The translations under genes and the position numbers were made by a program. A model generated the notes under the pieces. It was not told the origin of the DNA and searched no databases. It saw nothing but the letters and a program-made list of their open reading frames with translations. Below are positions 10,346-64,000 of a stretch of 64,000 nt of DNA, one piece after another. Source of the stretch: a phage; assembly GCA_012813795.1 (NCBI GenBank), contig GCA_012813795.1_4087.1. One strand, given 5' to 3'. Every line of letters starts with the position of its first letter. The stretch's first letter is position 1.

Positions 10346-10444
10346 TGTTTTATCTCCATGTGTTAATGAAAAAAATAGACACTCCACAATGTTCCTCGTG
10401 GAATGTCTCTATTATATCAGTACTTCTCAATGTGTCCCAAATTT

Positions 10445-10900: not shown

Positions 10901-10903
10901 ATA

Positions 10904-12514: not shown

Positions 12515-12554
12515 GTAAAAATCCTTTTTTGTTTAATATATATCATATTTATAT

Positions 12555-12863: not shown

Positions 12864-12893
12864 AGATATCTCCTAGTATGGAGATATTTATTA

Positions 12894-13244: not shown

Positions 13245-13268
13245 AGTGAAAGCTTCCCTGCTTAGTGT

Positions 13269-39900: not shown

Positions 39901-40379
39901 GTGATATGCCGAAACCACCAACCTCTGTTGAATTACAAGATATCTTCAAAGATGTTGAGAAGAAAACAGTAATTAGTGATAGTTTGATATGGCATAGTGC
40001 TGAATACTTACCATTGTTTGGTAATAGTGCTGCACCGGATTATAAAGCTGATTTCAAAGTAGTGAAATTACCGAATAGTACAATGAGTGATGACGAAATT
40101 CGACAAAGTATAGTTTCATTAACTAACCAGTACTTTGCAGTTGAGAACTGGGATTTTGGAGAAAGCTTTTATTATACTGATTTGTGTACATACCTTCATA
40201 CACAACTTGGTAGACATATTAGTACTGTCGTAATTGTAGCTCAAAATCCTAATTCTAAGTTTGGTTCATTGTTCGAGATACCTTCTAGACCTGACCAAAT
40301 ATTCATTAGTACTGCAACAGTTGATAACGTACAAATCGTTAACTCTCTTGCGAAAAGTAATATTAATATTGGTTTTTAA
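36915..40379 (+). CDS. 6: baseplate wedge protein, gp6 / baseplate J-like, enlarged (1154 aa)
   Basis: N-terminal region resembles T4 gp6; position after gp25. Confidence 0.65.
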   Translation: MSQQKRQSNLYAGEDWTQVYESFYKINLTAYDFDTIRQSMIDYLRQTYPDSFNDWIENDQFIFILDTIAMLGQNLAFRMDLNTRENFLDTASRRASVLKLAKMISYSPRRAYPGRATAKLTEIKTNQDVRNSYNESLKDKIIRWNDPMDSNWYENFILVMNSAFVSTNQFGNPVKRLDINGVSRHLYRMNTLPMSAPNLPFTATVNGESMTFEVVNPDINVIGVDERHPEPQEQKYIVYQNDGNGFSSPNTGFFVYFIQGTLQYQDFQYDVRQENRIQDINVDNINETDVWVQEITEDGIVRTKWTKVPSMESIAYNTVTRQLKTIYAVTTRDRDQISIKFPDSRSGVVPRGTYRVWYRVSNGETYNIKTADIQNKSVKYIYRTKSQSNYENSTLDIKFSLQFESDRAQSAETLEQIKARAPQMYYTQNRFVNGEDYNIAPLSQGNAVLKSKAINRIYSGQSRFIDINDPTGKYQNTDVFSDDGAMYKNVTKYNKSVNLPSTKSNSSIVIDDIQPLIGENAVIQKYQAYPQNTVRVELQQNWVPSYSSSYATNTYGRIVGATGTIYGDYKVGTLIKFGSSSNNIVWASIVNVLPNGFYVLSTPISSSMQIQEYISPYRTRFNTVEVQNIAAMLDKKTNFILIYDIVSTAWVPLEITTTSDTITYNGSLVQVMVNIQYTAETWEFDSNGVEYVFVGGEKVRFYFVSSKKITDISSGSVQSDKIEILSSNSTSTSNVGLTNNIDFQILDTIKQENGYLDGSRVVITSESMDSNGIPLNPNQFQSIVPDWTGEDSRKYGGILVFQQNEDFTISSLPLPNSSFTIMDSTWNYTMDQALAETNAYKRQEFIRNNEIRSTTLSEVYSKGTGFIIAFQYEGQYYFIEQTVGNNNDRLGVLIQNMTEVTDPSAATPETAFYRCIKNMGTSVDTNKKLNYYGYKDITSELTIKTNARTSINFHWKHYAPDDNRIDPSRTNLIDMYVLTNSYKTEVDIWLKNGAKGDMPKPPTSVELQDIFKDVEKKTVISDSLIWHSAEYLPLFGNSAAPDYKADFKVVKLPNSTMSDDEIRQSIVSLTNQYFAVENWDFGESFYYTDLCTYLHTQLGRHISTVVIVAQNPNSKFGSLFEIPSRPDQIFISTATVDNVQIVNSLAKSNINIGF

Positions 40380-40426: not shown

Positions 40427-40460
40427 TCAAATGAATGAACGAATTTATGGAGTCCTATAC

Positions 40461-49400: not shown

Positions 49401-50438
49401 GATGAAGGATTGAAAAATGGTGATAAGGTTGTGATTTTCACACCAGATGGTGAAGATTATGTACGATTCCAAGATGGTGAATGGGTAACTATACTAAGTG
49501 CTAGTAAAATCCAAACCTCCAAAAAACCAAAACTGTACACTGTGCGTGTATTGGGTAACGGAAACGTTGAGTTGGTTGATGGTAACGGTGTTGCATTGAT
49601 GTTTGATAGTGTAACTAAGCGTGAAAGTAATGAGCGTTTTTATACATTATCAATGAACTTAGTTAGAATCCGCACTTTCCAAGACCCTGAGTTTGATGAC
49701 AATGGCCTTAAACTATATGAAAATAATCGTCATTATAGTATACATGCATTGAACTATGAAGTATTCTATGACGAAACATTATATGGTGGTAAATTCAATG
49801 ATGGTATCACATCTGATGAGATTGATTTGTGGTTAGTTTCCAATGAGATTTTTGAAGTTGATGGTATTACAATTGATAATGGTTATAATCAACCAATCAC
49901 TGGTAAAGGTGTTCTAGGTGAACTAGTACGAGCTAAAATGACTGATGGTATTGAAATCACTGTATTTGAATACGATGTTGATGTTATTCAACCAGTACTA
50001 AGTTATGATCGCGTGTGGCAGTATGCACAACCAGTGGTCAATAACACGTTCATCAAAGAGGTAGGATGTAATGTTATTAACATTACAACTGTTGAAGATG
50101 AGGCAATCACTTATGTTGCTAAACCTCGTTCAATAAGCCCATATATCATTACTGATTCAGTACTGTCAGGTGCTGCGGCACAGAATGATGATATTATTGT
50201 GGTTGGATATGAGAAGGTTCAGGTAAGAAATACTGATCGTCTATTACGTGGTGTCATGTATAGTGCGGAGCATAATTTCACAAAAGGAACTTCTTATAGC
50301 TTCAATGGATTGAACTTAGGAAGCATTGATAAGTTTACTCAATATCAAAACTTCTATCCACCAATTCCATTAGAGACATTCAGAAATGGATTGTCAATTA
50401 CTGGAACCGATATCGAAAAACTTTTGAATATTCAATAA
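40461..50438 (+). CDS. giant virion structural protein (about 3325 aa) at the gp7 position
   Basis: single uninterrupted frame; GGAG RBS before the ATG at 40461 (first in-frame ATG at 40431 lacks an RBS); terminators on both sides. Confidence 0.8.
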   Translation: MTNNFKFLPTKTAEAVQQKLFIKRLPEWMQGLEDIQKVSDDVIQQWFNPADNEIVDGYIGDMGSPAASAKIFLDESTVERQLYQLSTAYVSRNDDTSIRSLQFYDDLVGYMEHYGTLTSNESRLFSGKFYSWTPPINPNKMTNYSSYLWDSKNSFGITSPDFIVMERGADNGNTWSLQNFWYTIGQTLEDGTVLTADMTQDTRFIRAQAPIIEYNKNIELINYGTNFRGIVDLFSDTVKPEDIVQKDVNDGIRIDGIIPQDGMRILFTSIGNVGENNRIYKVFIKKMQDGSRTYGLALDPDEESEERPSGEPHNGDVILVRDGNVYKNTSMYWNGVDWVRAQTKSGINVFPQFQLYDRDGFKLNDTTMYPSSNFVGSSLFGFKINYNYGTDKVYGYNIELGNYNYYMYENFLQSVRYTYDHLGVETEISGLYYYNVVGKDNELHLKTDWVRSKEDSKQFVKQTPQIEHTDMYRVFNTVFEMENFKTPLEGMYAYVIEVDRTYQYYKEERQTYMDWHVISGEGIQSERFNRTFELAQKIIDGKSTEIIEIQVDGVDVTDYTRHVYNNKVQSITLGEDVTLKDESVIQIRTYSSTEVPNKELGAYEIPINLQNNPYNDNILYINQSNFTLHFKDIIQKNITSGSVDDFNDYEERLSKGLVDNSVGTKIIQNEASMLPLMAHSANEDIDLFESVLFMQSEYFRFVNKFNTQMIRLYNENPANFLANNASNIVDEILTIINMGHDNTFPFYYDNVASTSGFIRAFVPPTPQFLGILKAHVPEKATFLNAGSKQSCYNISHTGAITKAYRVINGVDKMDDVIYELENRIFNSIDVIFKDEDYQPKLDASDLFPTPYFRDTEYNDEEKKNLLLRGYINFIATNGISNSSHDYDPNNWMTWNYTGTYYIVNGQQTQIPARGSWRAIYTDQFGTYRPATHPWEMFGFSQRPVWWNQEYEPTAVQVGERDSDVVYVYEALVLNEQGNMVPSGLWDVGNEKGDSSTGTILFGARKGQYDKYKRFGTQPFKITKTGKQTASGVDICVIEYIAPEVLGLVYGSLNHRAEPWTYGDMGDMEFTYMNTSMFAYDELMLLFKAKPAQFTNYFWNTRNNTLKTVSGNEPQFLYGDTRLRLNFNSDTIVHGENSTRVIGYQMIVSNYLMYQNKNITTKYGEVVRSSHINVGHKLGGFTKADQLTFTSEATGLISQENQSIGLVRSNNIRNEQMSAIKITWTGSAYQIDGYDLVSATFNYKLPVKNGHKVTLKVDNRNVVHYNEWKNDASIPYGTLMNTFQEVYTFICGYGEYLKQHGWIFEEVDESGIQQDWNTIAKDFLIWSQQQLSTGEFISCTPSAIKAKFGTDFGSVQSITQNSGGVWSLLDDSNQGIRQFEIETSRIGNIFTVRTTEESNKRMALIRLSISSYEHAVIFDDQTIFGDYIYEPTYGAVQELIKLYGYITGSWSGRLQAPGFIILEAGTLPSFETLVSNFQQYYDNETPVSDVQLNELSNHLIGYQSRDYLQRMITNEPGRIDFYKGFIHDKGTNQVLEKVLRVSKSYNTDEYKALQEWAFRVGSYGNIDGVKNLQFKLINNEFKQQPQMISFDRYADKVESENEIVYYGEIGEDSRWISRPKGKFSLPMRSGRSENIQLPNIGPVTLDEIDYTTLNYETANQDRISYTNNFGKIPTSVWMFQDINNEWNIYDLVDTGITMVSITPIENSDPYAEQYCKVLLSDDIPLMDGDYYYFVDETNFMPDALREEGQYYTSGLNPKVMVVPFDTSITIDFSTVESAPRLYRYVSRFSTQQERDDYIAKKYSYSAPESTLFDRPTTYDERTNITALYLNVFDPINGVIPGVAMQDVDFISPVDPAQYSSNGELLQAWGAEKVGKVWWNTSTAFYLDYTRPIFDEDGNVDVKATNEYKRYNWGKLLPHSVIDVLEWVSSPVEPYNWEKYCAEQANKNKNNTMYLPSGVAMDDNYSSSMEYDPITDTYVVRYYFWVRNTIYVPPMTTRSKSCTDIARIIQDPTQLNVPWFAPINENSFILSNMQFEVNDDTSILTISYRNDNIEVLKHDQYQLCKEGDSYDFNPDIWNSLWNSLIGQETTSTGVVNEIVYPKVETGLGSNKTWFQNVIEARRAFVESANNFYRSHNITTNSVVMNDVFNVKTLKMNPNDITFRVLSFNNELVIAPEDNRFKENDAVFVSSIGTLPAPLSSSSVYFVHIDPNGYIQLMNSPSTVGSTVTITLENRGEGQHKMIKQADFIESLGTSLDMTQYWNLADWYDTGYDSNTEYTQEVSLDDANTKNYQIGDIIRVTDSDGVWTLYIKTASRNNVYWRAIGRENSTVELNSMLYSSYNVYNDDGSLNSHEVNVRNALALLKNSFDLYQSNIVFDMVKYVHTEQSVVDWVFKTSYIYIVGLEQSLVQNYSNDNLINQIVEYFEEVKPYRTKIRSQIEQKTSDDDLINGISNDLDPDGYILVDGVWVKTEKDIWDLEYAQFNDVTQRWEKIGSLPSDFITPNRRFQEIDVIMHYDNIQCEQYDSNYTIDELKSTNSKYQSNEADVGNNYELQRYVYTFPEYDNNTLISQIGIEMTTKYSDLDISNGVIKGIDAWYKAHSTDIASTDQFTTDLEQVTADTNNSNILEDVKKYIQYNTLATRVKMFNNISDDMVSNEIGCPFKGTNYNDNPNTRLPFGFSASSDYNYGYFEISIELYEKYVDMIKKNHPEFTNEDQIRNILEIEYGVYCYKYDTTLNDRYYSDTVHVLSAMRQTFNKNILDHYYVAREILSNRSVEKYAFVMMPRKYVYVVNAAGEYLPIPESYSISDFMEDLFITTGESVVLAEIDLNDLPQDQNNPMYSAYIEVLESINTAKYFNDMNAFDNLALESQTKSIKWEVKDSEIDPYIIDISELNPSGRTMAQLRFTVDGYGFDEVAQEQLKDTSRFQIEGMIVQNPYNMSEAIVSIPSYDIVIENMGKDVFKDSEKYFFPISEIKTITEIKVHDEGLKNGDKVVIFTPDGEDYVRFQDGEWVTILSASKIQTSKKPKLYTVRVLGNGNVELVDGNGVALMFDSVTKRESNERFYTLSMNLVRIRTFQDPEFDDNGLKLYENNRHYSIHALNYEVFYDETLYGGKFNDGITSDEIDLWLVSNEIFEVDGITIDNGYNQPITGKGVLGELVRAKMTDGIEITVFEYDVDVIQPVLSYDRVWQYAQPVVNNTFIKEVGCNVINITTVEDEAITYVAKPRSISPYIITDSVLSGAAAQNDDIIVVGYEKVQVRNTDRLLRGVMYSAEHNFTKGTSYSFNGLNLGSIDKFTQYQNFYPPIPLETFRNGLSITGTDIEKLLNIQ

Positions 50439-50475: not shown

Positions 50476-52761
50476 TTACACTACAGATGGGGTTTTAACT
50501 TGACGCTTTGGTTTGATAGCCAATTTGCCGTTAATTACATCAAATGTTACGTTTCCACCATTTACCAGAGAACCACACAGCATTTCTTTAGCCAGAGGAA
50601 CACGGATATTTTGTTCAATGGTACGTTTCATTGGACGTGCACCCATTCCAGGCTGAACACCATTTGCTTCTAACCATTCACGGGCCGCTTTAGTAATAGT
50701 TACTTTCACGCCACGTTCTTTGATTTGTTCATTTAGACCAGCCATGAACTTATCGATAACACTTTGGATAGCTTCACTAGATAGCTCATTGAACTTCACG
50801 ATACTATCGATACGGTTTAGGAATTCAGGTGGTAGGAAAGCTTTCACTGCTTTCTCTTGTGCAGTTTCACCACCACTTAAACCCAGACTGCGTTTGTTTG
50901 CATCTGCTGCACCTAGGTTGGTAGTCATAATAACTGTTACGTTGTTAAAGTAAACAGTTTTACCTTGAGAACCAGTTAGATGACCTTCATCCAGAACCTG
51001 TAGGAAGGTTAGCAGTACTTTAGGGTGAGCTTTCTCAATTTCGTCCAGAAGTAGGACAGCATTTGGGAATTGCTCAATCTTATCCAACAGTAGACCATTA
51101 CCAGTGTCATGACCAACATAACCTGGAGGTGAACCAATTAGTTTTGCAACGGTATGTTCTTGTGAAAATTCAGACATATCGAAGCGAATCAGTTCAGACC
51201 CCATTGCATCTGCTAGTGCTTTGGTAATTTCAGTTTTACCAGTACCAGATGGACCGACAAACATGAATGCACCTTGAACACTTGCTTTCTCACGCAGACC
51301 TGCACGGGCAACCATTACGTTATCTACCAATTTCTCAACTGCTTCTTCTTGACCGAATACACGGCTACGAAGTGCTGCTGGTAGTGACTTCATGCGTTCA
51401 GTTTCAGTACATGCCACTACGTTGATATCCAAGTTTGCAATTCCAGAAACAACTTCTTGAATTGTGCGTAGTGAAATTACGTTATCAGAATCATCACGTG
51501 AACGTTTCTTAGCTGCTGCTGCATCCATCAGGTCGATTGCTTTGTCTGGGAAGTGCTTGTTCTTCAGGAACTTATCACTCAAAGACACAATCGCATCCAT
51601 TGCTTCAGCACTGAAAGTTACGTTATGGAATTTCTCATAAGTACCTTGTAGACCATTTACAATCGCACGAGTTTCTTCAATTGTTGGCTCAACTACGTCA
51701 ATTTTCATGAAACGACGAGTTAGTGCACTATCTTTCTCGATATTTTTACGGTATTCATCGTAAGTAGTTGCACCGATTACACGAATCTCACCACGAGATA
51801 GTGCTGGTTTCAACATATTACTCATGTCCATTGAGCCGTTGCTTGCAGAACCTGCACCAACCATGATATGGATTTCATCGATGAACACGATTGTATTTTC
51901 ACGCTTCTTCAGTTCTTTGAGAAGATTATCAATACGCTCTTCGAATTCACCACGGTACTTAGTTCCAGCAGTTAGTGCACCAACGTTGAGAGACAAAATC
52001 TCAATGTTTTGTAGATGTTCTGGTACATTACCATCAACGATTGCTTGTGCTAAACCATCAACAATCTGAGTTTTACCAACACCAGCTTCACCAGTAAGAA
52101 TAGCATTCTTTTTAGTTTTACGTGCTAATGTTTCAATCAGTGCGTCCAGTTCTTTTTGACGCCCAATCATTGGGTCCAGTTTGCCATCTTTAGCCAACTG
52201 TGTTAGGTTGGTCGTGTAATCTTCAATTGATTTCTGTTTTGATGCAGGTTGTTGTTGAGCCACCTTTTTCTCCCCAGTAGGTTCATCAGCGATGCTTTGT
52301 AGGTTAATTTCAGAATCAAGAGATTCTACATATTTCTGAAGAGTACGGGCCGCTTCAGTGCGAGTTACACCCTCTTCCAACAATGCTGCTTCTAATGCAG
52401 TGTTTGGGAATGACAAACATTCAAACAGTACAAAGAATGCATCAATTGAGAAATCGTCACGTTTGAGTTGTTCGATGACAGATTTCTTAGATAGTTCTTG
52501 CATTACACGATTGACGATTAGTGTAGTGCGATTAACTTCTTCCCCCATAGTGCTGCGTGGTGCGTGTGGAACATTGGTATTTTTCAGATATTCAATCAAG
52601 CGATCACGCACTTTCGTTGCGTCAACGTTCATTGTCCCAAATACATCAATAATGCTATCCACTGTCAGCACTGTAGCACTGATGTGATCGATTGTCAAGA
52701 AAGTATGACCCATAGAGGTTGCAAGGTCGTCGCTGCTTTTGAATAGCTGTGTTAAATTCAT
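50476..52761 (-). CDS. clpA: ClpA-type AAA+ unfoldase (Clp N-domain plus two AAA modules)
   Basis: Walker A GEAGVGKT and GPSGTGKTE; Walker B IVFIDEIH and LLLDEIEKAH; LTAGTKYRGEFEER; GSPPGYVGH; IGL-like loop SLGL; GGAGAG RBS. Confidence 0.9.
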   Translation of the reverse strand: MNLTQLFKSSDDLATSMGHTFLTIDHISATVLTVDSIIDVFGTMNVDATKVRDRLIEYLKNTNVPHAPRSTMGEEVNRTTLIVNRVMQELSKKSVIEQLKRDDFSIDAFFVLFECLSFPNTALEAALLEEGVTRTEAARTLQKYVESLDSEINLQSIADEPTGEKKVAQQQPASKQKSIEDYTTNLTQLAKDGKLDPMIGRQKELDALIETLARKTKKNAILTGEAGVGKTQIVDGLAQAIVDGNVPEHLQNIEILSLNVGALTAGTKYRGEFEERIDNLLKELKKRENTIVFIDEIHIMVGAGSASNGSMDMSNMLKPALSRGEIRVIGATTYDEYRKNIEKDSALTRRFMKIDVVEPTIEETRAIVNGLQGTYEKFHNVTFSAEAMDAIVSLSDKFLKNKHFPDKAIDLMDAAAAKKRSRDDSDNVISLRTIQEVVSGIANLDINVVACTETERMKSLPAALRSRVFGQEEAVEKLVDNVMVARAGLREKASVQGAFMFVGPSGTGKTEITKALADAMGSELIRFDMSEFSQEHTVAKLIGSPPGYVGHDTGNGLLLDKIEQFPNAVLLLDEIEKAHPKVLLTFLQVLDEGHLTGSQGKTVYFNNVTVIMTTNLGAADANKRSLGLSGGETAQEKAVKAFLPPEFLNRIDSIVKFNELSSEAIQSVIDKFMAGLNEQIKERGVKVTITKAAREWLEANGVQPGMGARPMKRTIEQNIRVPLAKEMLCGSLVNGGNVTFDVINGKLAIKPKRQVKTPSVV

Positions 52762-52869
52762 GTTCTCTCCTATGTGATTCTTCTCACTGTCATTAAAATC
52801 ATTATATCACATTCTTTCAGTTTGTCTACCTAGTAAATACAGATATACCGATTTATTTTGGAGAACAAA

Positions 52870-54366
52870 ATGGCATACAGAATGTGGAAAAAAGGTAGAA
52901 CCAATGATTATAAATTCATAGATTCTGCCATTGCTGAACAATACAATATTGGTGGCGTAGACATGTGGCTTTATGCCTTTGTCGGTGCTAAACCATCAAC
53001 AACTCCTAACGACTATTCTTACGGTGGTGATTATATCACTGATGGTTCCGCTGCGTCAAGTATTGGTGACCTAATTTTTGGTGAAACCTCAAATCGTAGT
53101 TACAATCTAGAGGCTATCACACTTAGTTGTGTTTATCAAGTACAAGAAGCAACACCTGATTTAAAAATTCCTGGGTTGTTCTTTAACTTCAACACAATGG
53201 ACATTACAGTTCATTATAACACAATGATGCAGCGATTGGGAAGAAAAATTATGCCTGGTGATGTAATTGAACTTCCAAACCTTCGTGATTTCGATGTTGT
53301 TGGTAAAGATTCAGGTTTAAACCGTTTTTACGTAGTTCAGGACGGCTTTAGAACATCTGAAGGTTACTCTGCAACATGGCAACATCACATTTACAAAATT
53401 CGTGTCAAGCCTATTACCGATTCACCTGAGTACGCGGACTTACTTACTAATAATGATTATCCAGACAACCCAGATGACCCAAATAATGGTAATGGTAACA
53501 GTGGTTCTAATGGTTCTTCACCAAACAGCAGTTATGATAACGAAATGGATATCATGAACCGTATTATAATGCAAGCTGATGATGAAGTCCCTTATATCCA
53601 CTTCACAAATGAACATATATACGATGATAGACCAGATACAACCGATTTGTCAAAGTTTGTTCTTAATGGATATGACTTCCCAGAAGAACCAGCTAACAAA
53701 ATGTACTTCTTGAAGAAAACTTTACCAGTACTGAAAGAGAAAGTCAACAATTCATGGGAAAATGTTTCAGTACCATATGGAACAACGTTTCCACGTAAAC
53801 CATCTGATGGTGATTTCTTCTATAAAGAGAATGATTCAGATGTTACGGGATATTCCCTGTATCAATATGACAAATCTGTCAAAAAGTGGCTCAATTGTGA
53901 TGTAGAATACTCAACAGGTGATGTTCCACCTAAAAATGCTGAAGATTTTTACATTCAATATGAAAAACCAACAATGTACCAGTACTTAGATGGTACATGG
54001 CAAGTTCCACCAGATACACATGTTAACTTACCTTTCAGTTCTAACAGTGTATATGGTAACATAGACTCGCAACAAGATTCAAGACCTAAAATTCCACCTG
54101 CTCGCGGCACTGTGCAAGAAGGGGACACGTTCCCATCTGATCCTACTGATGGTGAATACTTCTATCGCACGGATTACAACCCTGTAACTCTTTGGGAATA
54201 CAGTGAAGTTAAAAAGTCTTGGGTAATCTTTGATTATGGTGGACGTAAACCGTGGGAAGGTGCTGATTTGGCCCTAACCGAGTTCGTTAACAGTCCTAAT
54301 CGTGTCCCATTACACGACGCGGCAAAACCAAACACTCTATACCGTGCAAAAGGGGATAAAGAATGA
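52870..54366 (+). CDS. hypothetical (probably virion) protein with internal DG(D/E)(F/Y)FY...VKK(S)W repeats
   Basis: ATG at 52870 with GGAG RBS; repeat copies around aa 316-350 and 433-466. Confidence 0.5.
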   Translation: MAYRMWKKGRTNDYKFIDSAIAEQYNIGGVDMWLYAFVGAKPSTTPNDYSYGGDYITDGSAASSIGDLIFGETSNRSYNLEAITLSCVYQVQEATPDLKIPGLFFNFNTMDITVHYNTMMQRLGRKIMPGDVIELPNLRDFDVVGKDSGLNRFYVVQDGFRTSEGYSATWQHHIYKIRVKPITDSPEYADLLTNNDYPDNPDDPNNGNGNSGSNGSSPNSSYDNEMDIMNRIIMQADDEVPYIHFTNEHIYDDRPDTTDLSKFVLNGYDFPEEPANKMYFLKKTLPVLKEKVNNSWENVSVPYGTTFPRKPSDGDFFYKENDSDVTGYSLYQYDKSVKKWLNCDVEYSTGDVPPKNAEDFYIQYEKPTMYQYLDGTWQVPPDTHVNLPFSSNSVYGNIDSQQDSRPKIPPARGTVQEGDTFPSDPTDGEYFYRTDYNPVTLWEYSEVKKSWVIFDYGGRKPWEGADLALTEFVNSPNRVPLHDAAKPNTLYRAKGDKE

Positions 54367-55706
54367 AAGTAGAATACTACTATGATGGTCAATTTCGTCG
54401 AGTACTGAAACATCTTATCAGGATCTTTGGTGGATTTCAAGTACAAAATGGTGTTGATGACGAAGGTAAACCAAGATATAAACAAGTTCCATGCAGATAT
54501 GCAGATATTTCACGTTTAGCAGCAGCAGTTATTAATGGTAATAGTGAAAACGTAATGCCAACTGCTCCTATTATGACTATTAGTGTGAATCAATTGAAAT
54601 TGGATCGTAAAAGTATCCGTTCAAATGCGAACGAAACTATTATTATGGGGACAAATAAGTCCCCTGCACCAAATGAATTCACTCCTGAGTTGGATAAGCA
54701 GTATAAAATAACAAGACATAACCCTGTCCCTTGGACATTTACATTTGATTTAAACATATGGGTTACACAACTGCAAACAAAAATGGAATTATATGAGCAA
54801 ATCAGTACATTGTTTGCTCCAAGTGTTCAATTGCAACTATCTGATAACCCATTAGACTGGACGGCACAAAGTGATGTAGAATTAATTGACTGTCAATTCA
54901 GTACTCGTGGATTTCCACAAGGAACTGATACTGAACTTGATATTATGGTTCTTACATTTGAAACAACTATATGGTTATCATTACCTGCTATCGTTGAAAA
55001 GCCAAAGCTTATACAACAGATAACAACTAATATAGAAAGTGGTCGTGATGAATTGGATTTTGAAATAGGAAACTATCAGGATATAATTACTGATGTATTC
55101 ACTCCTAAAAATTTATGCATCAAAGTTGAAGAAATAACAGAAGCATCGGATAAAAACGCAGATACTTATGTCCTTACATTGGTAAGTCAAAGTATGAGTG
55201 AGAGAACATCCAACGGTGGTATATATTCTTGGGAGAAATATATTCAGTACTTAGAGCCTGAATACAAAGATAAGAAACTCGGTATTAAATTCCAACAAGC
55301 AATCGAAGAAAGTAATCCTTTGCGTGGAACTATAATATCAATGGGACACGAAGATAAGGCAAACAAGATTGTTGTTCAATTGGATAGTAGTAATTATGTT
55401 GTTGATTACTCAATCATAGCGTTGATATCCAAAGATGCAGAATTGTATTCAGCTATACCTGAACAATATTATGTAAATAATAGTGCAAGAGATTTAATTT
55501 ACAAAGACACAGTTATTCCACCAAATTATTTGTTCAAAATAACAAATGAAGGTGCTGAACTAATTGAACCGTCTTCAGTACTTAATTATGTTTACAATCG
55601 TCAAGACAGTCACTATTATAGATACAATGAAAAATTCAAATGGCATAAGAGTATTATGTCGCAATACCGTCAGGGATATTGGAAGATATCATTCACTGAC
55701 AAATAA
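54363..55706 (+). CDS. hypothetical protein
   Basis: ATGA overlap with the upstream gene; GGGGA RBS. Confidence 0.5.
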   Translation: MKVEYYYDGQFRRVLKHLIRIFGGFQVQNGVDDEGKPRYKQVPCRYADISRLAAAVINGNSENVMPTAPIMTISVNQLKLDRKSIRSNANETIIMGTNKSPAPNEFTPELDKQYKITRHNPVPWTFTFDLNIWVTQLQTKMELYEQISTLFAPSVQLQLSDNPLDWTAQSDVELIDCQFSTRGFPQGTDTELDIMVLTFETTIWLSLPAIVEKPKLIQQITTNIESGRDELDFEIGNYQDIITDVFTPKNLCIKVEEITEASDKNADTYVLTLVSQSMSERTSNGGIYSWEKYIQYLEPEYKDKKLGIKFQQAIEESNPLRGTIISMGHEDKANKIVVQLDSSNYVVDYSIIALISKDAELYSAIPEQYYVNNSARDLIYKDTVIPPNYLFKITNEGAELIEPSSVLNYVYNRQDSHYYRYNEKFKWHKSIMSQYRQGYWKISFTDK

Positions 55707-55715
55707 GGAGGATGT

Positions 55716-56180
55716 ATGAATGAGGCAGTAGGAGCAATATTTTTATCTAAAAGTACTGGTCATATGATGCTCAATCTTAGATCTGAAAGCAGTACCTATT
55801 CAAACAACTGGGCTTTTGTTGGTGGAAAACTCGAATACAACGAATCCCCTTTGCAAGCTTTACATCGTGAAATACGAGAAGAATTGGGAGATTCGTTACC
55901 TGATATAATTGATATTATACCCTTTGATGTATTTTGTACAAAGAATGGTAAGTTCAAATATTATTCTTTCGTTGTTGTTGTTGAAAATGAGTTTGTTCCT
56001 ATTCTCAATAAGGAAAGCTCTGGATATGCTTGGGTTAAAATTGGCTCATGGCCTAAACCACTACACCCTGGAGCTAAAAACACTTTATTAAATGTTAATT
56101 TGATGAAAGATTTTTATTCTTTGTGGGAAAGTATAAACGCTGGTACGCAATTTGTCAACAGCCTACCATATAGATATTAA
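55716..56180 (+). CDS. Nudix hydrolase
   Basis: Nudix box GGKLEYNESPLQALHREIREELG; AAGGAGG RBS. Confidence 0.85.
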   Translation: MNEAVGAIFLSKSTGHMMLNLRSESSTYSNNWAFVGGKLEYNESPLQALHREIREELGDSLPDIIDIIPFDVFCTKNGKFKYYSFVVVVENEFVPILNKESSGYAWVKIGSWPKPLHPGAKNTLLNVNLMKDFYSLWESINAGTQFVNSLPYRY

Positions 56181-56210
56181 AAAAAGGAGCCAATGGCTCC
56201 TTTTTCTTTT
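56179..56210. terminator. bidirectional terminator between the Nudix gene and the minus-strand operon
   Basis: AAAAAAA-GGAGCC-aat-GGCTCC-TTTTTCTTTT. Confidence 0.75.
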
Positions 56211-56213
56211 GTA

Positions 56214-57311
56214 TTACACACCAATGATTGGAATACCAGTAATGTTAAGAAGTACTGAAGCCTGAAGCTTAACACTTTGCCCAGTTCCTAAACCAGATAT
56301 TGAACCATCTATACGGAAACCTAAATGTTTACCAGTATTAAGGGAATTTATAACCCATGCTTCATAATCTGTTTTTGTCATTCCACCGGGATTTGGAATT
56401 GTAGGATCTACTCCATTAACTACCATATTAACATCCCATGTAGGTTGTGAACTGGTAATAACATCTTTAATAACTTCTAAACTTGTAATTCGACGTGGGT
56501 CTGGAATCTCACTACATGGTATAGAACCTGGCACAAAAGCACCTTCGTTGTCAATGTAGAATTGACCTTTGATGATAAATGTCTTGGAGTTGAATGGCAA
56601 TGAAACAACTTCACCAGTACTATCCTGTACTTCGCGAATCATAATTTTCAAATCATAGAAATAGTTACTTCCGAATTGGAAAACACCATTACCATTACTA
56701 AAGGATGTCCAGTTATCTGGATCTACCTTAGAACCACCACCTAAGTTGAAATATGCAAGTGTCTTAGTACTTTCAGTTTGGGTAAATTCAATATATTTCT
56801 TACCTAAATCATAGTTTATATCCAAAAGTGATGAATATTCTTTGTTTTCAGGACGAGATGTTTGAATTTCACGCCATTCTTTATTTTTCATCAAAACACG
56901 GAGTGAATCGCCGTTATTTGTCAAAACCATACGACCCATCACACTACTTTCACCATCAGGAATGGTGTTGAATATAGTGATCATTGGAATTGATGCCCAA
57001 TCTGACTCTGATGCAGTATCTATCGGTTGGCGTGCGTTATCTACTAGAGAAATAAGTAGTTCACCAATGTTACCAGTGTTTTTATACCAAATTTGTCCCT
57101 TAACACTACCACGAGGTGCAGATGGCCCACTAAAATGCTCAACTAAGTGTAGGAAGTTCTCGTTCCATGCCTGACCATAACCAACTTTATTACGACCAAC
57201 TAAGTTAATTGGGACTGGGTTGGTCCCTGGTTGATTAGGACCAAGGATGACGTTGTTTGGAATGGAAGCATAAATGCTCCCATCACTGCGATATATAGTA
57301 TAATTATTCAT
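56214..57311 (-). CDS. putative baseplate / fiber-associated structural protein
   Basis: late operon on the minus strand; Gly/Asn/Ser-rich. Confidence 0.45.
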   Translation of the reverse strand: MNNYTIYRSDGSIYASIPNNVILGPNQPGTNPVPINLVGRNKVGYGQAWNENFLHLVEHFSGPSAPRGSVKGQIWYKNTGNIGELLISLVDNARQPIDTASESDWASIPMITIFNTIPDGESSVMGRMVLTNNGDSLRVLMKNKEWREIQTSRPENKEYSSLLDINYDLGKKYIEFTQTESTKTLAYFNLGGGSKVDPDNWTSFSNGNGVFQFGSNYFYDLKIMIREVQDSTGEVVSLPFNSKTFIIKGQFYIDNEGAFVPGSIPCSEIPDPRRITSLEVIKDVITSSQPTWDVNMVVNGVDPTIPNPGGMTKTDYEAWVINSLNTGKHLGFRIDGSISGLGTGQSVKLQASVLLNITGIPIIGV

Positions 57312-57321
57312 TTACCACTCC

Positions 57322-57936
57322 TTACTGTAGTTGTACACGAACAGTATATTTTATTTGTAAAACACGATTCGCACTTTTCTCTACTGGGTGGAAAATAATA
57401 TGAGATAACGGCATACCATTATCACCATCAGTATATAAACCCAATTCATCAAATACGTAAGTACCATCCATATTAGTACTGGAACTTGTATTCTGATCAA
57501 CTGGTTCACCTAGACCTAAAGTGCAAATACAGACGATATCGGTATATGCTTGGCCTGGAATGTGAACAGTTGTGATGTTATTATACTGTGAATCAATACT
57601 ACTTGAGATTCTAGGGTTTATTTTCTTCAAATATGTTTGTGAATATAGACCACCAAATGAGGTTACACGTGGTTTTTTATATGTTACACGACCAGTACTT
57701 AATACAACAGTACCACCGTTACCAAAACGCATTTCTGATATTGACCCAACTGGGATACCGGAACTATCTTGGTTGTATGCTAGTGCGTTAGCAATTGCAG
57801 TACTCATGTTTTCTGGGTGAATTGCGTTCGATTTATCGAGTACAATTTTTTCATTCGCAGGATCAGTAACGTCAGTAATTAGTACATGACCCTTAACGAA
57901 CAGTTTTGGTTGTTCTGTTTCTAATTTCATTTCCAA
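57322..57936 (-). CDS. putative structural protein
   Basis: same operon; by position only. Confidence 0.45.
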   Translation of the reverse strand: MEMKLETEQPKLFVKGHVLITDVTDPANEKIVLDKSNAIHPENMSTAIANALAYNQDSSGIPVGSISEMRFGNGGTVVLSTGRVTYKKPRVTSFGGLYSQTYLKKINPRISSSIDSQYNNITTVHIPGQAYTDIVCICTLGLGEPVDQNTSSSTNMDGTYVFDELGLYTDGDNGMPLSHIIFHPVEKSANRVLQIKYTVRVQLQ

Positions 57937-57939
57937 TCC

Positions 57940-58437
57940 TTAAAAGTTTATTAAAATTTCTTCAATTTTTCCAGCCATACTCTTTTGAACATCTGATGGA
58001 TTCTGACTGATGTAATTACGGTCAATACCAACTTTCAAATATGTAAAATTGCCTGTTAGCGTCTCTGCAAATGTCCCAGTTGTACCATGCTCAAGCATAC
58101 TATCACCATTATTTGGATTGTATATTCTGGTATCAGTAAATTCCAGATAATAATTACATGATTCTGTAAATTTAATTGGGAACCAATCATCATCGGTTGG
58201 ATTACTAGCTAATGTTGCCAAAACATAAATTCGTCCAATAAATTCACGTAATGTGAAGGAAATTGTATGTAGACCTGTAGTACTACCATAGTAACCACCA
58301 CTTGCCATTGGTAATGTCACTTCGTTCCAGTGATAATCGTCATTTGATGGATACCAACTATCAGAATCTGGAAAATCCTGAATAGCTCCATCTTTTCCTT
58401 TGCGTTTGAAAAGAAAATTCTTTGATCTTAAAGCCAT
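57940..58437 (-). CDS. hypothetical protein (first gene of the minus-strand late operon)
   Basis: ATAAATAAAT-like motif upstream on the minus strand. Confidence 0.45.
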   Translation of the reverse strand: MALRSKNFLFKRKGKDGAIQDFPDSDSWYPSNDDYHWNEVTLPMASGGYYGSTTGLHTISFTLREFIGRIYVLATLASNPTDDDWFPIKFTESCNYYLEFTDTRIYNPNNGDSMLEHGTTGTFAETLTGNFTYLKVGIDRNYISQNPSDVQKSMAGKIEEILINF

Positions 58438-58503
58438 TGTTAAGCCCTTTTGTGTAGTGAACTTTCATTTATTTATTATTGGTCTTCGTTGCTGCATTGA
58501 ACA

Positions 58504-58512
58504 GATAAATAT
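58504..58512 (+). promoter_or_regulatory. late-promoter-like GATAAATAT upstream of the collagen-like fiber gene
   Basis: about 35 nt upstream of the ATG at 58547. Confidence 0.3.
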
Positions 58513-58546
58513 TCCTATATGATAACAATTCATAAAGGGAATAATT

Positions 58547-59674
58547 ATGACAATTTCATTCAACAATGGGTCTGGCGGTTCATGTAACAATTCTGGTATT
58601 AAGAGTTTAGTAATTAACTCTGCTGGTCATTTGATTGTAACATTCGCTGATAATACAATACAAGATTTGGGTCTAGTCGTTGGACATGACGGTACTAATG
58701 GTAAAAATTTCTATCCTGATGATGTTGGTATGGAAATACCAGACGGTACATTTGCAGTTGATAAACCAGAAGGTTGGTGTTATTTAAGTCTAGCAAATGG
58801 AACTGCAAAACTATATTTTAAAACAAATGATGCTGGTGTAGAACCAAGTACTTGGAACACAGTAGAATTTGGTAAAGGTGATACTGGTGCACCAGGTAAA
58901 TCATTTAAAATTGATTCTTCTGGTCCTGTTTTTCCAACCACTGGTCTATTTGACCAATATACTTTCTATAATACTTCCGATGGTAAAGTGTATTTTTATA
59001 ATCAAAAAGCTGGTTCATGGAGTAATGGTATTGATTTCCGTGGTGAACAAGGTCCACGTGGTCGTTTCCATATTGACAGTGACGGTCCTGCTTTCCCAAG
59101 TATTGATAACTTACCAGAAGATTATTGCTTTTATAACACGACTGATGGAAAACTATATTACGTAGATATTAATAAGCAAACCACCCCTCCAACAAAAGAA
59201 TGGAGTGAAGGTATTGAGTTCCGTGGTAAAGATGGTGAACCTGGTCCAGAAGGTAAGCAAGGTGATACGGGTCAGAATGGTAAAGATTCAATTATCGTTG
59301 TAAACACGATTGATCATTCATGGACCAACGCAGTATTGGTAATCGGTACATGCCCAGCAGGTTATGTAGTAACTAATATTGAAGTTGATATCACCCAAGC
59401 TTATATTGACCCTGTAACTGAAATGCACATTCGTGTAGGTGGGGAAGCACAAGAAGATATCGGCGGTACTATTATTGCACCAGTTGATTATTTTGATATC
59501 AACCGTGCACTACGCTTTATCGTTAATGAAACAAACCATGAACCGTCAGCAGAAGATGAAATCATTGCTTGTGTTTTTAATGAATCAGTTAATAACAGTA
59601 ATTATGGTCAAATGAAAGTAATTTGTACTCTAGCATGGCAAGCACCAATCCAACCAATTGAAAACAACATCTAA
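58547..59674 (+). CDS. fiber / whisker-like protein with collagen-like G-X-Y triplet runs
   Basis: GKGDTGAPGK, GEQGPRGR, GKDGEPGPEGKQGDTGQNGKD; repeated FxIDSxGPxFP...YNTxDGKxY unit; GATAAATAT upstream. Confidence 0.7.
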   Translation: MTISFNNGSGGSCNNSGIKSLVINSAGHLIVTFADNTIQDLGLVVGHDGTNGKNFYPDDVGMEIPDGTFAVDKPEGWCYLSLANGTAKLYFKTNDAGVEPSTWNTVEFGKGDTGAPGKSFKIDSSGPVFPTTGLFDQYTFYNTSDGKVYFYNQKAGSWSNGIDFRGEQGPRGRFHIDSDGPAFPSIDNLPEDYCFYNTTDGKLYYVDINKQTTPPTKEWSEGIEFRGKDGEPGPEGKQGDTGQNGKDSIIVVNTIDHSWTNAVLVIGTCPAGYVVTNIEVDITQAYIDPVTEMHIRVGGEAQEDIGGTIIAPVDYFDINRALRFIVNETNHEPSAEDEIIACVFNESVNNSNYGQMKVICTLAWQAPIQPIENNI

Positions 59675-59687
59675 GGGGGATTGATTA

Positions 59688-60056
59688 ATGGCAGTTTTTT
59701 CTAACTTTGAAGGGACAATTTTACACAAACAATCTGGGGGTAAATATGTAGTAACAGTAGCTGGTGCATTCGTAGGAAAATATGAACAGCTTAAAGCAGC
59801 AGTAGTTGGTGCTAAAACTATTAGAACACATAACACTGCATGGGGTACAAACCAATATGCTAAAGCAGCAGGTACAAGAATTGTAATTCCTGGTGCTGGT
59901 GAAAATGGAACTGATCTCCACACTCATATAACACGAGCTACATACGTGGTCAACTCGGTATTTTGCATTGATATAGCAGACGAAATAAAAACTGCTTTCC
60001 CTGATGAGACTCCATTGTTAGCCGAATCCCCAATTACATACATTACACTTCCATAA
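59688..60056 (+). CDS. small fiber-associated protein sharing an N-terminal module with the next gene
   Basis: N-terminus MAVFSNFEGT matches MAVFSNLEGT of 60074..60976. Confidence 0.5.
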   Translation: MAVFSNFEGTILHKQSGGKYVVTVAGAFVGKYEQLKAAVVGAKTIRTHNTAWGTNQYAKAAGTRIVIPGAGENGTDLHTHITRATYVVNSVFCIDIADEIKTAFPDETPLLAESPITYITLP

Positions 60057-60073
60057 TAAGGAGATATTTCAAA

Positions 60074-60976
60074 ATGGCAGTTTTTTCTAATTTAGAAGGA
60101 ACTTTGAAGAAGAAATTTATTCTAGGTAAAAATGGTGCACAATTCACGACAAATGGTGATATTGTGCAAATCCAAGATTATTCTGGAACAAGACTTCTTC
60201 CAGTTTCTGCTGGTGACCCAACCGCAAACACACACCTAGTAACCTTAGCATATTTTAATGCTCATGGTGGTAGTGGTGCAAGTGGTATTTTGCGTGGTGA
60301 TATCGCTCCTGCTGATACACTAGGAACTGATGGTGATGTTTATTTTATGGTTGATGCAACCAACATCGTTCAAATATATATTAAAGACCTTGGGATTTGG
60401 AAACCATTTAATGGTGGTGGTCCAGTAACCGATAGTCCTTATGTAACTTCATTCTCGGTCCCTGTTGCAGCATTTGTTCTTATTCCTGGAACAGTCGATG
60501 AATATACATATACCATTCCTGAATCACAACATGACCGTGGTCGTGACATTTTAGTTCAAATGGAAGATACACCAACAGACGGTAATCCAAATATTCGTAG
60601 TGTGGTTAATTCCGAAATTACATTGTCTGGATTTGGGGATATTACAATTAAAATGCTTGGCCTCCCAGATGGTATTACTGAGGTTAAAGTTAATATTATA
60701 GGAGCAACCGCTATGACTACCCCATACGGAAAATTGATTAACAAAGCAGACTGGATTGCTGCTGCTGATAAATTCACTTACACTGTCACTGCTGATACAC
60801 ATAAACAAAGTCCTGATTCTTTGTACGTGGCAATCTATGGTAATGATGTACCTGGTTCAACAGCATCTGCACCGTTTGATTTGGTATTCGTTGATACACA
60901 AATTGATACAGATGGTAATGTTACTTTTGTATCTGATGAACAATTCAGTGGTAAGATTGTTATCGCTGGGAAATAA
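60074..60976 (+). CDS. putative tail fiber / receptor-binding protein
   Basis: conserved MAVFSNLEGT N-terminus with a divergent C-terminal region; AGGAGA RBS. Confidence 0.55.
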   Translation: MAVFSNLEGTLKKKFILGKNGAQFTTNGDIVQIQDYSGTRLLPVSAGDPTANTHLVTLAYFNAHGGSGASGILRGDIAPADTLGTDGDVYFMVDATNIVQIYIKDLGIWKPFNGGGPVTDSPYVTSFSVPVAAFVLIPGTVDEYTYTIPESQHDRGRDILVQMEDTPTDGNPNIRSVVNSEITLSGFGDITIKMLGLPDGITEVKVNIIGATAMTTPYGKLINKADWIAAADKFTYTVTADTHKQSPDSLYVAIYGNDVPGSTASAPFDLVFVDTQIDTDGNVTFVSDEQFSGKIVIAGK

Positions 60977-61090
60977 GATTTATGCCAGGTATGGTGTCTT
61001 AGTGCCTGGCTTTTTCATATATACAAATAAATAATTACATATTAACACAGTTAATAAGTATTTTAATTTTACCCAAATGGAGGGAAATGA

Positions 61091-64000
61091 ATGTACTCGA
61101 TAAAAACAGATCTAGCAGTAACTGGTAATACTAATGTTGGTAAAGAATTATCAGTTAAAGGTAATGCGGTCTTCGATAAAAACGTAACCATTAAGGGGAC
61201 CGTTAGTTTCGCTGATGCTACCTTCACTGCAATTACAGTAGATCAAGCAACAATCAACACAACACTCGATGTTACAGGCAAAGCGTCACTGAAGGGTGGA
61301 ATGGATGTACTTGGTAATACAGTTATTGGTAATACTACTGCTGGTTCCGATACAGCAACTATTAATTCCAATGCTACTTTTAATGGCACTTCTACTTTTG
61401 CCAAAGATATTACACAAACATCAGGAAAAGCAATTTTTCAAGATACCACCACTTCTGCATTAGAAGTTAATGGTACAACAACATTAAATGGTAACCTCAC
61501 TGCTGCGGCAGCAACCACTGCAAGCTTTGATAAATTAACAGCTAATGAAGCAACCATTGCAACTGTATCAGCAACTGATATTACTGCAACTGGTGCAACC
61601 GTTGAGAATCTAACTGTAACTGGTAAATTAGATGGTGATTTCACACTAGGTGATGTAAACACTGACAATTTAGTTGTTAATAAATTATCAACACTAAAAG
61701 GTGCAGTAACTCTAGAATCAAACATCATTGGTACTAATTCCGTAGCCAACCTTAAAGCTGTATCTTTAGGTTCTAACGCTGCGGATACAACTACCCGTGT
61801 TGGTTTTGCATATACAGCACCAGGTCTACGCCCAACTGTAATTCTACAAAACGAAGTGCAGTCCGAGTTAATGACCCCAGCAAATCTAACAGTACTTAAA
61901 ACTGCTACATTTGGTGATGTATCAGCAGCAACCAATGGTATTACCGCAAAAGGCTTGAACTTATTTGATTACCTAACTCTTTCTGGTAACTCAATTCAAG
62001 ATCCAAATACACCTATTCTACGTGTAACTAAAGGTAAAACACAATTAACTGACCTACAAGTTGATGGAACTACTAATATTACTGGTAAAACTACTGTTGG
62101 TGATTTGGATATTACTGGAACACTATCAGGTAACTTTGTACTAAGTGATATTACTGCGGATAATTTAGTTGTTGAAAAACTAACTACACTAAAAGGTGCA
62201 TTAAACCTAGAATCTAATATTGTTGGTTCAACTGCGAATGCTAATTTAAAATCTGTCACTTTAGGTGGAAACGTAGCAGACACGAATGCTAAAGTTAACT
62301 TTACATATACTGCTCCTGGTTTACGTCCAACTGTAATTCTACAAAACGAAGTACAGTCCGAATTAATGACCCCAGCAAATCTAACAGTACTTAAAACTGC
62401 TACATTTGGTGATGTATCTGCATCTACCTACGGTATTACAGCAAAAGGTTTGAACCTATTTGATTATTTGAAAATAACTGGTAATGCGGTACAAGATCCG
62501 AATACCTTAACTCTCGATGTTGGTGGTAAAGCACAATTCAAAGACGTTAATTTCACTGGTACAGTTACTGGTTTTGTTCCAGACATTTCTGGTCAAGATA
62601 TTACACCTAAAGATGTTATTGCTTCTGGTAATATTAGTGGTGTTAATCTAGATGCTTCTGGTACACTAACAGTTGGTGGGGATTCCGTTCTAAAAGGCAC
62701 AACTATAACTGATTTGACTGTTACTGGAACTACAACTGGTATTACACTAGCTGGTCAAGACATTACTCCTAAAGATGTAACTGCATCTGGTAATGTTAAA
62801 GGTGTTGACGTAACTGCATCTGGAAACCTAAAAGTTAACGGTACTACCACATTGGCTGGTAACACGGTAGTTGATGGTTTATTTGAAGTTGTTGGTCAAA
62901 CAACCACTGTTAAAGATTTAAACGTTACTGGTACACTATCTGGTGCTGCAATTAAAGCAAACGTTGATGGTCTAGACATTCTACCTAATTCTGTAACCAC
63001 AACTGAAGAAGTTGCAGTGGGGACTAATCTAAGTGTTGGTGGAAACGCACTCTTTAGTGGCTTGAAAGTTGAAGTTACTGGTAAAGTTACTGGTGTTGGT
63101 TCTGATGCATTAGAAACTGGTTCAATTGAATCTGACGGTACTATCACTGCCCCAAATATCACAGCAACTACTAAAGTGACCGCAGCTTCCGCACAAATTA
63201 CCGGAACCGGAACTGGTCTAAGTGTAGATCATAATGCATCAGTTGGTGGTGATTTGAATGTTACTGGAACTTTAACTGCTGGCGTTATTGACCTACACGA
63301 TGCAGAAGTAACTGTTAAAAAACTTAATGTATCTGAAAGTGCACATGTTGGTGGTGACCTAACAGTTGACGGTACAGTTGACCTAAGTGCAGCTATTGTA
63401 ACTGTTAAATCTCTAACTAGTACTGGTCCAGTAATTAGTAAGGATACTACTGGAACTAACATTTTACCAAAATTACAAAGTACTGATATTACTACAACTA
63501 ACAGTACAACTGGTACAGCAACAGTAACTACAGCAAATATTTCTACATTAAATGTTACTGGTGAAAGTACATTGGCTGCTGTTTCTGCTGTTTCTGTTAC
63601 CACTCCTACTATTGTGAATACCGATGGTATTAATTTAGAAAATGACACAATTGCACATGGTAACCTAACTGTTAAAGGTACATTTACCCCTGAAGGTGGA
63701 TTAGATTTAAGCCCAGTTGATATCAGTTCTAAATCATTAACAACAACTGAAGGTGCAACCATTGGTGGAAGCTTAACTGTTGATGGTGCAATTAATGCTG
63801 CTGCGGCAGATCTAACTGTTAAATCACTAACATCTTCTGGTGTTATCACTGTTACTGAAAATACTGAACCAAGTATTCTACCAAAACTAACAAGTACTGA
63901 AGCAACCGCTGGTAAATTGAATGTTACTGGTGATGCAACAGTCGGTGGTAAAGCGACCGTTTCTGGTGCACTTGAAGTTACTGGTGCTTCAACATTTGGT
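61091..64000 (+). CDS. long repetitive tail fiber protein, 3' end beyond the window
   Basis: frame open from the ATG at 61091 (GGAGGG RBS) to the window edge; TG-rich repeats; about 500-bp tandem duplication; absent from the ORF track because no stop is reached. Confidence 0.75.
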   Translation, partial: MYSIKTDLAVTGNTNVGKELSVKGNAVFDKNVTIKGTVSFADATFTAITVDQATINTTLDVTGKASLKGGMDVLGNTVIGNTTAGSDTATINSNATFNGTSTFAKDITQTSGKAIFQDTTTSALEVNGTTTLNGNLTAAAATTASFDKLTANEATIATVSATDITATGATVENLTVTGKLDGDFTLGDVNTDNLVVNKLSTLKGAVTLESNIIGTNSVANLKAVSLGSNAADTTTRVGFAYTAPGLRPTVILQNEVQSELMTPANLTVLKTATFGDVSAATNGITAKGLNLFDYLTLSGNSIQDPNTPILRVTKGKTQLTDLQVDGTTNITGKTTVGDLDITGTLSGNFVLSDITADNLVVEKLTTLKGALNLESNIVGSTANANLKSVTLGGNVADTNAKVNFTYTAPGLRPTVILQNEVQSELMTPANLTVLKTATFGDVSASTYGITAKGLNLFDYLKITGNAVQDPNTLTLDVGGKAQFKDVNFTGTVTGFVPDISGQDITPKDVIASGNISGVNLDASGTLTVGGDSVLKGTTITDLTVTGTTTGITLAGQDITPKDVTASGNVKGVDVTASGNLKVNGTTTLAGNTVVDGLFEVVGQTTTVKDLNVTGTLSGAAIKANVDGLDILPNSVTTTEEVAVGTNLSVGGNALFSGLKVEVTGKVTGVGSDALETGSIESDGTITAPNITATTKVTAASAQITGTGTGLSVDHNASVGGDLNVTGTLTAGVIDLHDAEVTVKKLNVSESAHVGGDLTVDGTVDLSAAIVTVKSLTSTGPVISKDTTGTNILPKLQSTDITTTNSTTGTATVTTANISTLNVTGESTLAAVSAVSVTTPTIVNTDGINLENDTIAHGNLTVKGTFTPEGGLDLSPVDISSKSLTTTEGATIGGSLTVDGAINAAAADLTVKSLTSSGVITVTENTEPSILPKLTSTEATAGKLNVTGDATVGGKATVSGALEVTGASTFG
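61600..62592 (+). repeat. tandem duplication (period about 496 bp) inside the long fiber gene
   Basis: near-identical about 140-bp cores at 61832-61972 and 62328-62467. Confidence 0.8.

Follow-up and report, generated by a model that had tools for sequence, protein, structure and literature searches.

The DNA considered here is a 64,000-nt window of a phage contig (GCA_012813795.1_4087.1), which ends in a fibre and tailspike cluster (positions 58547-64000) whose second gene has been reduced by an in-frame deletion. The four genes of the cluster were numbered 1-4 and all lie on the plus strand. Gene 1 (58547..59674) encodes a 375-amino acid (aa) tail protein and matches phrog_13565 ('tail protein') over its full length (E 1e-197). 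Gene 2 (59688..60056) encodes 122 aa and was identified as a colanidase tailspike remnant by alignment to A4_571 and its orthologues and by a partial match to phrog_6117. Gene 3 (60074..60976) encodes a 300-aa virion structural protein (phrog_10468, E 4e-77). Gene 4 (61091..64000) is a long fibre gene (phrog_4549 'tail fiber', E 2e-113), of which the window holds the first 970 of ~1845 codons before it is cut by the window end. The window was compared with Escherichia phage A4 (ON286972.1), a jumbo myophage of ~355 kb that is Asteriusvirus-like. Nucleotide identity is 97.2-97.6% on both sides of the gene 2 junction, and genes A4_572 to A4_569 follow the same order as in the window. Gene 1 has the same length in the two phages, genes 1 and 3 each fall into the same 90%-identity cluster as their A4 counterparts, and the long fibre of both phages carries a 2 x 165-aa duplication. 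The exact proteins of genes 1-3 were found on a 357,761-bp contig of an Escherichia coli isolate assembly (locus tags ABV23_RS01875-01885; reads SRR2034070).

In A4, genes 1 and 3 are separated by A4_571, a 2172-nt gene for a 723-aa 'colanic acid-degrading protein'. In an alignment of gene 2 with 6-7 orthologues including A4_571, residues 1-10 (MAVFSNFEGT) were joined in frame to the counterparts of A4 residues 612-723. The profile match of gene 2 was confined to positions 594-709 of the 711-position phrog_6117 ('colanic acid degradation'). With blastn, window positions 52512-59719 corresponded to positions 1-7207 of the A4 locus and window positions 59710-64000 to positions 9001-13291. Exactly 1803 nt (601 codons) are missing from the window relative to A4, and they are missing in frame. 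From the overlap of the blastn segments and a base-by-base view, the junction was placed on a 10-nt microhomology with one mismatch, AAGG(G/A)ACAAT (59710..59719, plus strand). Gene 2 has kept its own Shine-Dalgarno sequence (AAGGGGG at 59674-59680), and gene 3 also has one of its own. Residues 11-122 of gene 2 differ from A4 residues 612-723 at one position (G to E). This private Gly-to-Glu change at codon 106 (60003-60005), which turns FPDGTP into FPDETP, was present in none of the eight intact close relatives. A single private substitution is too little from which to infer relaxed selection.

The direction of the change is loss, since in the 90%-identity cluster of gene 2 all but one of the nine members are 723 aa long and phages 121Q, BF17, Turkey5 and UE-S1 carry collinear 713-aa genes. 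The reverse order of events, with an ancestral 122-aa form and a 723-aa form made by insertion, was rejected because every other lineage, and phi92, has a full-length collinear gene. The anatomy of the deletion, its direction and its junction can thus be read directly from the alignments. The microhomology points to illegitimate recombination mediated by it as the deletion mechanism; folding of the DNA at the breakpoints gave no unusual structure. Neither IMG/VR nor the JGI metagenome contigs contained the 29-mer spanning the junction. IMG/VR also yielded no relative of the tailspike, and a protein homologue search with the 122-aa stub returned no matches. Within the collections searched, the junction allele is private to this assembly.

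The protein that has been lost was examined in A4. Intact A4 gene 2 matches the colanidase tailspike gp150 of phi92 (PDB 6E0V) over aa 104-722 (E 6e-216). Its residues 86-722 are 52% identical to 'colanidase tailspikes' of the Vequintavirinae, whose N-terminus is different. Because the enzymatic body is deleted, virion colanic-acid depolymerase activity is predicted to be absent from the window phage.

The N-terminus of the intact tailspike is related to that of gene 3. A4 gene 2 and gene 3 share 39% identity over 106 aa (E 3e-18), in a module with the invariant residues M1, A2, F4, S5, N6, G9 and T10. In gene 3 this N-module is complete and covers aa 1 to ~109 (60074-60400, plus strand), followed by a body of ~190 aa that forms an all-beta C-terminal part; window gene 2 does not pass as a copy, as it holds the first 10 residues only. 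The preliminary description of the window had noted that genes 2 and 3 both begin MAVFSN(F/L)EGT and then diverge, as exchangeable receptor-binding cassettes would. The common start is real (27 of the first 30 nt are identical), whereas the small gene 2 as a swappable cassette and the divergence after a common module are not: the two genes seem to diverge early because gene 2 retains only the first ten module residues, after which it switches, through the 1803-nt deletion, to the end of the tailspike.

Copies of the N-module were then traced in other phages. RaK2, GAP32, CBB and others have one per genome, whereas Asteriusvirus has two. In RaK2, the module makes up the whole of ORF061w, a virion protein of 115 aa; in GAP32 it is the head of a 287-aa protein. 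A homologue search with the 115-aa N-module as query gave three matches. An exhaustive HMMER search recovered the module as a free-standing protein (99-115 aa), in gene 3-like proteins (281-294 aa) and in the colanidase (723 aa), and also on two metagenomic proteins, the 780-aa P0038 with a Peptidase_S74 C-terminus and the 1226-aa P0051 with a sub-threshold BNR/Asp-box match. The idea of exchangeable bodies on an N-terminal module therefore holds for the family, in which several bodies are joined to it, and fails for genes 2 and 3 of the window. From this distribution, the N-module is predicted to be of docking type. Gene 3 itself has 71 full-length homologues across genera, at 41-82% identity, and because of this full-length conservation it is not a variable cassette. 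Its AlphaFold2 (AF2) model is all-beta with a predicted local distance difference test score (pLDDT) of 80. A Foldseek search of the model against PDB gave no match at E<=0.001, and the matches in BFVD were limited to orthologues and to generic viral proteins of the fibre or collagen-like type.

The colanidase gene is also disrupted in other phages. Escherichia phage JP4 (PQ330092.1) has lost 1536 nt in frame in a separate event, with a GGTG-TGG-GAAA microhomology at the junction; the DNA on either side is 99.4-99.5% identical to 121Q. Its 201-aa remnant (locus 4327-4932) is made of 153 N-terminal and 48 C-terminal residues. Both JP4 and the window thus have an in-frame microhomology deletion of the tailspike; JP4 keeps the whole N-module, whereas the window keeps 10 residues. 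The gene is split by one extra A in an A7 run in vB_Ec-M-J and by one extra C in JNE01, and these single-base changes may be sequencing errors. In Salmonella phages SD-6_S16 and SD-1_S14, 16 and 32 nt, respectively, are missing out of frame (locus positions 3297 and 3306). The left ends of these two deletions lie within ~10 nt of the orthologue of the right breakpoint of the window (window 59710-59725). Both records are truncated and of doubtful quality, with gene 3 split too, and the deletions could reflect a fragile site or assembly artefacts. The recurrence of the deletions and the clustering of their breakpoints are leads for a systematic survey and not yet findings.

The A4 orthologue of gene 4, A4_569, is 1845 aa long and 97% identical at the nucleotide level. 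The only PDB sequence match of gene 4 was to the putative tail fibre of phiTE (PDB 9CUY chain g, E 9e-18). A Pfam scan gave Bactofilin only, below threshold, and the GenBank label is 'long tail fiber proximal subunit' (T4 gp34-like). At the level of sequence comparison, these matches support a fibre and do not support orthology with T4 gp34. The AF2 model of the duplicated region, made from a single sequence, was unusable (pLDDT 38).

Gene 4 contains a tandem duplication of a 165-aa unit on the plus strand. Copy 1 (aa 170-334; 61598..62092) has its core at 61832-61972 with a 56-nt exact repeat at 61868-61923, and copy 2 (aa 335-499; 62093..62587) has its core at 62327-62467. The near-identical cores seen in the preliminary description are thus borne out, with an exact period of 495 nt and a second core that starts at 62327 and not at 62328. 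The two copies are 68% identical overall, which is why Tandem Repeats Finder (TRF) missed them, and the cores are identical at 130/141 nt, far beyond chance. A unit of 165 or 170 aa was found in A4, 121Q, BF17, Turkey5, UE-S1 and JP4 (165 in the A4 lineage, 170 elsewhere), in two copies in all the Asteriusvirus-like fibres examined except that of JP4, which has three. The right flanks of the unit group by position across genomes (0.54 for window copy 1 with 121Q copy 1, 0.61 for the second copies and 0.39-0.44 for cross pairs), so the duplication predates the split of the lineages. In JP4, the left part of the middle copy is that of 121Q copy 2 (92%) and the right part that of 121Q copy 1 (93%). 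Unequal crossing-over within the core would be expected to yield such a chimera. The view of this region as a recombination hotspot stands to the extent that the duplicated unit is a recombination substrate, with three copies and a chimeric middle one in JP4. Adjacent in-register copies, their retention in relatives, a chimeric copy-number variant and a patchy synonymous excess together fit a tandem duplication that evolves by unequal crossing-over and gene conversion.

Older repeats were also found in the fibre, again on the plus strand. A 54-56-aa repeat (aa 485-560 against 541-632, 45% identity) lies at 62543..62986, with nucleotide cores at 62589-62674 and 62751-62836 (79%). A second older tandem duplication of ~138 aa (aa 685-830 against 817-968, 46-47%), which the preliminary description did not mention, lies at 63143..63994. 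A repeat of 138-aa period was seen at a similar position of the fibre in 121Q, UE-S1 and JP4, where the copies are more similar (55-69 of 100 residues identical). The JP4 fibre (locus 5984-12373) also has an extra near-identical tandem duplication of 112 aa near aa 1506, and it is 2129 aa long against 1841 aa in 121Q. Gene 4 is 65% identical to its 121Q counterpart at the nucleotide level and the upstream genes 76%, so that the fibre is the more diverged between the clades. In BF17 (locus 11560 on) and Turkey5 (11009 on), a shorter gene 4 (~1630 aa) precedes a further long fibre gene. Members of the genus differ in how many long fibre genes this locus holds.

Gene 1 had been described as alternating G-X-Y runs with a repeated unit of ~55 aa, and this was confirmed. 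There are four runs, at aa 46-54, 111-119, 166-174 and 227-247 (3, 3, 3 and 7 triplets), encoded on the plus strand at 58682-58708, 58877-58903, 59042-59068 and 59225-59287; the last corresponds to a TRF row at 59224-59287. They alternate with three related units of 55-65 aa (start-to-start spacing 65, 55 and 61 aa), which are followed by a C-terminal domain of ~128 aa. Identity is 44% between units B and C (E 1e-17) and 32% between A and C (E 7e-6). The match to Pfam Collagen (PF01391) scored 15.5 bits, under the gathering cut-off of 27.2 bits, and no long uninterrupted G-X-Y stretch was found. Because this match is sub-threshold, 'collagen-like' is valid for gene 1 only in the loose sense of short runs. 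The repeat unit showed no relation to the second half of the N-module (hhalign probability 0.3%). The same architecture is kept as far as ORF062w of Klebsiella phage RaK2 and GAP32_222 of Cronobacter phage GAP32, and gene 1 is therefore a conserved and not a variable component. Its protein is probably trimeric. By size and gene order, it is probably the counterpart of the virion protein gp253 of phAPEC6.

Upstream of the fibre operon lie three divergently transcribed conserved genes on the minus strand (365, 204 and 165 aa; 56214..58437), which match PHROG 14394, 11259 and 13657 (E 5e-209 to 3e-90). They occur in identical order in A4, 121Q, RaK2 and GAP32 and are virion or baseplate-associated genes that flank the operon. 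Two large open reading frames are found further upstream, at 40431-50438 (3335 aa) and 36915-40379 (1154 aa). Judged by size, they are probably gp245 (382 kDa, hypothetical) and gp244 (131 kDa, baseplate wedge) of phAPEC6. Between genes 3 and 4, a terminator-like hairpin was noted at 60984..61015 (plus strand), with a 9-bp stem GCCAGGUAU/GUGCCUGGC followed by UUUUU. Its folding energy (-15 kcal/mol, z = -1.9) supports it weakly, and it was missed by the consensus scanner because its loop is 9 nt long. The scan for promoter and terminator consensus sequences did no better than on shuffled sequences. No tRNA was found in the window and no compositional anomaly across the fibre cluster. The locus had no match in a local collection of complete E. 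coli genomes. Further A4-like genomes of 351-359 kb were seen within E. coli assemblies, with O157 among the hosts; lytic Asteriusvirus-like genomes have previously been described inside E. coli assemblies, with 189 assembly-derived genomes reported (bioRxiv 10.1101/2025.05.06.652010).

The window comes from short reads assembled for a bacterial isolate, and an assembly artefact was considered for both the gene 2 deletion and the gene 4 duplication. The Logan assembly of SRR2034070 was found to be 100% identical to window 53688-61897 and to cross the junction without a branch. The same unbranched junction was therefore obtained with two assemblers, and its 10-nt microhomology with one mismatch is far below assembler k-mers. 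The Logan contig does break within the gene 4 repeat, at 61897. This is the exact start of the 31-mers from the 56-nt exact repeat, and with k=31 a genuine repeat is expected to break the contig there; longer reads can resolve such a repeat. The two-copy structure is present in the independently sequenced A4, 121Q, BF17, Turkey5 and UE-S1, and copies that are 68% identical overall cannot arise by collapse or expansion. For the duplication, an artefact is in practice excluded by the two copies of the relatives and by the repeat-explained break; taken for the two features together, it is barely credible. The reading of genes 2 and 3 as alternative swappable receptor-binding cassettes on a short N-terminal adaptor, with the 122-aa gene 2 a genuine small protein, draws on the common 27/30-nt start and on the various bodies that carry the N-module in other phages. 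Against it, gene 2 follows the C-terminal 112 residues of the 723-aa tailspike collinearly from residue 11 to residue 122, the flanks are 97% identical and the junction is clean, 10 of ~106 module residues are left and gene 3 is conserved. We consider it very improbable.

Two further alternatives concern the forces at work rather than the anatomy. The loss of the colanidase may have been adaptive and not neutral, in favour of persistence in a carrier state or on non-mucoid hosts, or it may reflect repair of a targeted break at a fragile site near codon 610. The independent disruptions in JP4, SD-6_S16, SD-1_S14, vB_Ec-M-J and JNE01 speak for this, as do three deletions with an endpoint within ~10 nt of one orthologous position and the recovery of the window phage from within a bacterial isolate assembly. 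However, sequencing error may account for the single-base changes, and both SD records are truncated, with a split gene 3. Eight further A4-like genomes, of which several come from E. coli assemblies, have an intact colanidase, and the breakpoints are without secondary structure. On balance this explanation appears unlikely. Rather less likely still, and put forward as speculation, is that inactivation repeatedly strikes the colanidase gene of Asteriusvirus-like jumbo phages, with a breakpoint hotspot near codon 610, either through a site-specific break repaired via microhomology or through selection for depolymerase-less virions in the carrier state, and that the stub may still be made and have a role. 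For gene 4, purifying selection on the peptide alone, and not gene conversion, could have kept the cores near-identical: in each genome examined, both copies strongly preserve the core peptide YTAPGxRPTVILQNExQSE...GITxxGLNxxDYL. It leaves the synonymous identity unexplained. The two copies agree at 30/38 synonymous codons of the narrow core in both the window and A4; the count for the other genomes is 12/28 to 18/31, and the level there, as in comparisons of orthologues, is ~45-58%. The homogenised patches also lie at other places in other lineages. Selection alone is thus an improbable cause, and the patchy pattern suggests that a gene-conversion patch of ~95-140 nt was laid over the old duplication in the A4 lineage.

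The reading that we favour, with a probability of about 0.88, is that an A4-like (Asteriusvirus-related) lytic jumbo myophage, whose genome was assembled together with an E. coli isolate, carries here its conserved module of fibres and tailspike, in which the gene 2 colanidase was lost by in-frame deletion and the gene 4 shaft was built by repeated tandem duplication, with gene conversion in the A4 lineage and unequal crossing-over in JP4. The anatomy, the homologies, the conservation of the repeats and the variation in their copy number are direct observations. Gene 2 of the relatives carries a paralogous copy of the N-module fused to a colanidase tailspike of the phi92 gp150 type. In the window, an 1803-nt in-frame deletion between 10-nt microhomologies has removed almost all of the N-module and the whole beta-helix enzyme, and has left a translatable 122-aa stub made of the N-terminal decapeptide and the C-terminal domain. 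The shaft of gene 4 would have grown by repeated tandem duplication, with the 165-aa duplication older than the genus. Gene conversion would have homogenised part of this duplication in the A4 lineage, and in JP4 unequal crossing-over would have raised the unit to three copies.

Several points weigh against this reading. Both assemblies derive from one read set, in which a minority wild-type allele may be present. Two deletions could both be in frame by chance (1/9). The name 'colanidase' in Asteriusvirus comes from homology to phi92 gp150. In the left part of the gene 4 unit, the paralogues of the window are closer to one another than to their 121Q orthologues, a pattern that a separate and younger duplication in the A4 lineage would also explain. 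Finally, virion mass spectrometry of phAPEC6 (PMC7247149) lists gp253 and gp256 and does not list gp254 and gp255. Mapped by size and order, gp253 and gp256 would be genes 1 and 4, and gp254 and gp255 the colanidase and gene 3. Because gp254 and gp255 are unlisted, incorporation of N-module proteins into phAPEC6 virions is not established. The 121Q annotation names gene 3 a structural protein, despite the absence of gp255 from the phAPEC6 virion list.

For annotation, a 122-aa 'hypothetical protein' beside a fibre gene is here the scar of a deleted depolymerase tailspike, and automated predictions of host range or depolymerase content for the window phage would err either way. The independent in-frame microhomology deletions in JP4 and in the window phage suggest that phages can do without the colanidase in some settings, and also that only deletions confined to the gene survive. 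In the fibre shaft, duplication, gene conversion and unequal crossing-over would together provide one route by which jumbo phages change the length of a fibre.

The tail module of RaK2 and GAP32 is syntenic with the window, in the order gp15-like gene, NUDIX gene, three reverse genes, gene 1, N-module protein and long fibre. In RaK2 (ORF062w/ORF061w), the N-module is the stand-alone 115-aa protein and no long fibre follows; in GAP32 (GAP32_222/221/220) there is a single N-module gene. Asteriusvirus differs from both by an additional N-module-colanidase gene between gene 1 and gene 3. The N-terminal ~85-105 residues of its tailspike are an adaptor of the RaK2 type, which is not found in phi92 or in rV5-like phages. 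The C-terminal part of phi92 gp150 (~residues 513-623) is the counterpart of window gene 2 residues 11-122, whereas its enzymatic beta-helix body (~residues 17-510 of 6E0V) is present in the A4 orthologue and absent from window gene 2. These comparisons leave the current understanding unchanged: the value of the locus is as natural-variant material and not as a new system, and the deletion mutant is of modest interest. Both the cluster as a module and the phage lineage to which it belongs are already known, and what is specific to the window is its natural in-frame colanidase deletion.

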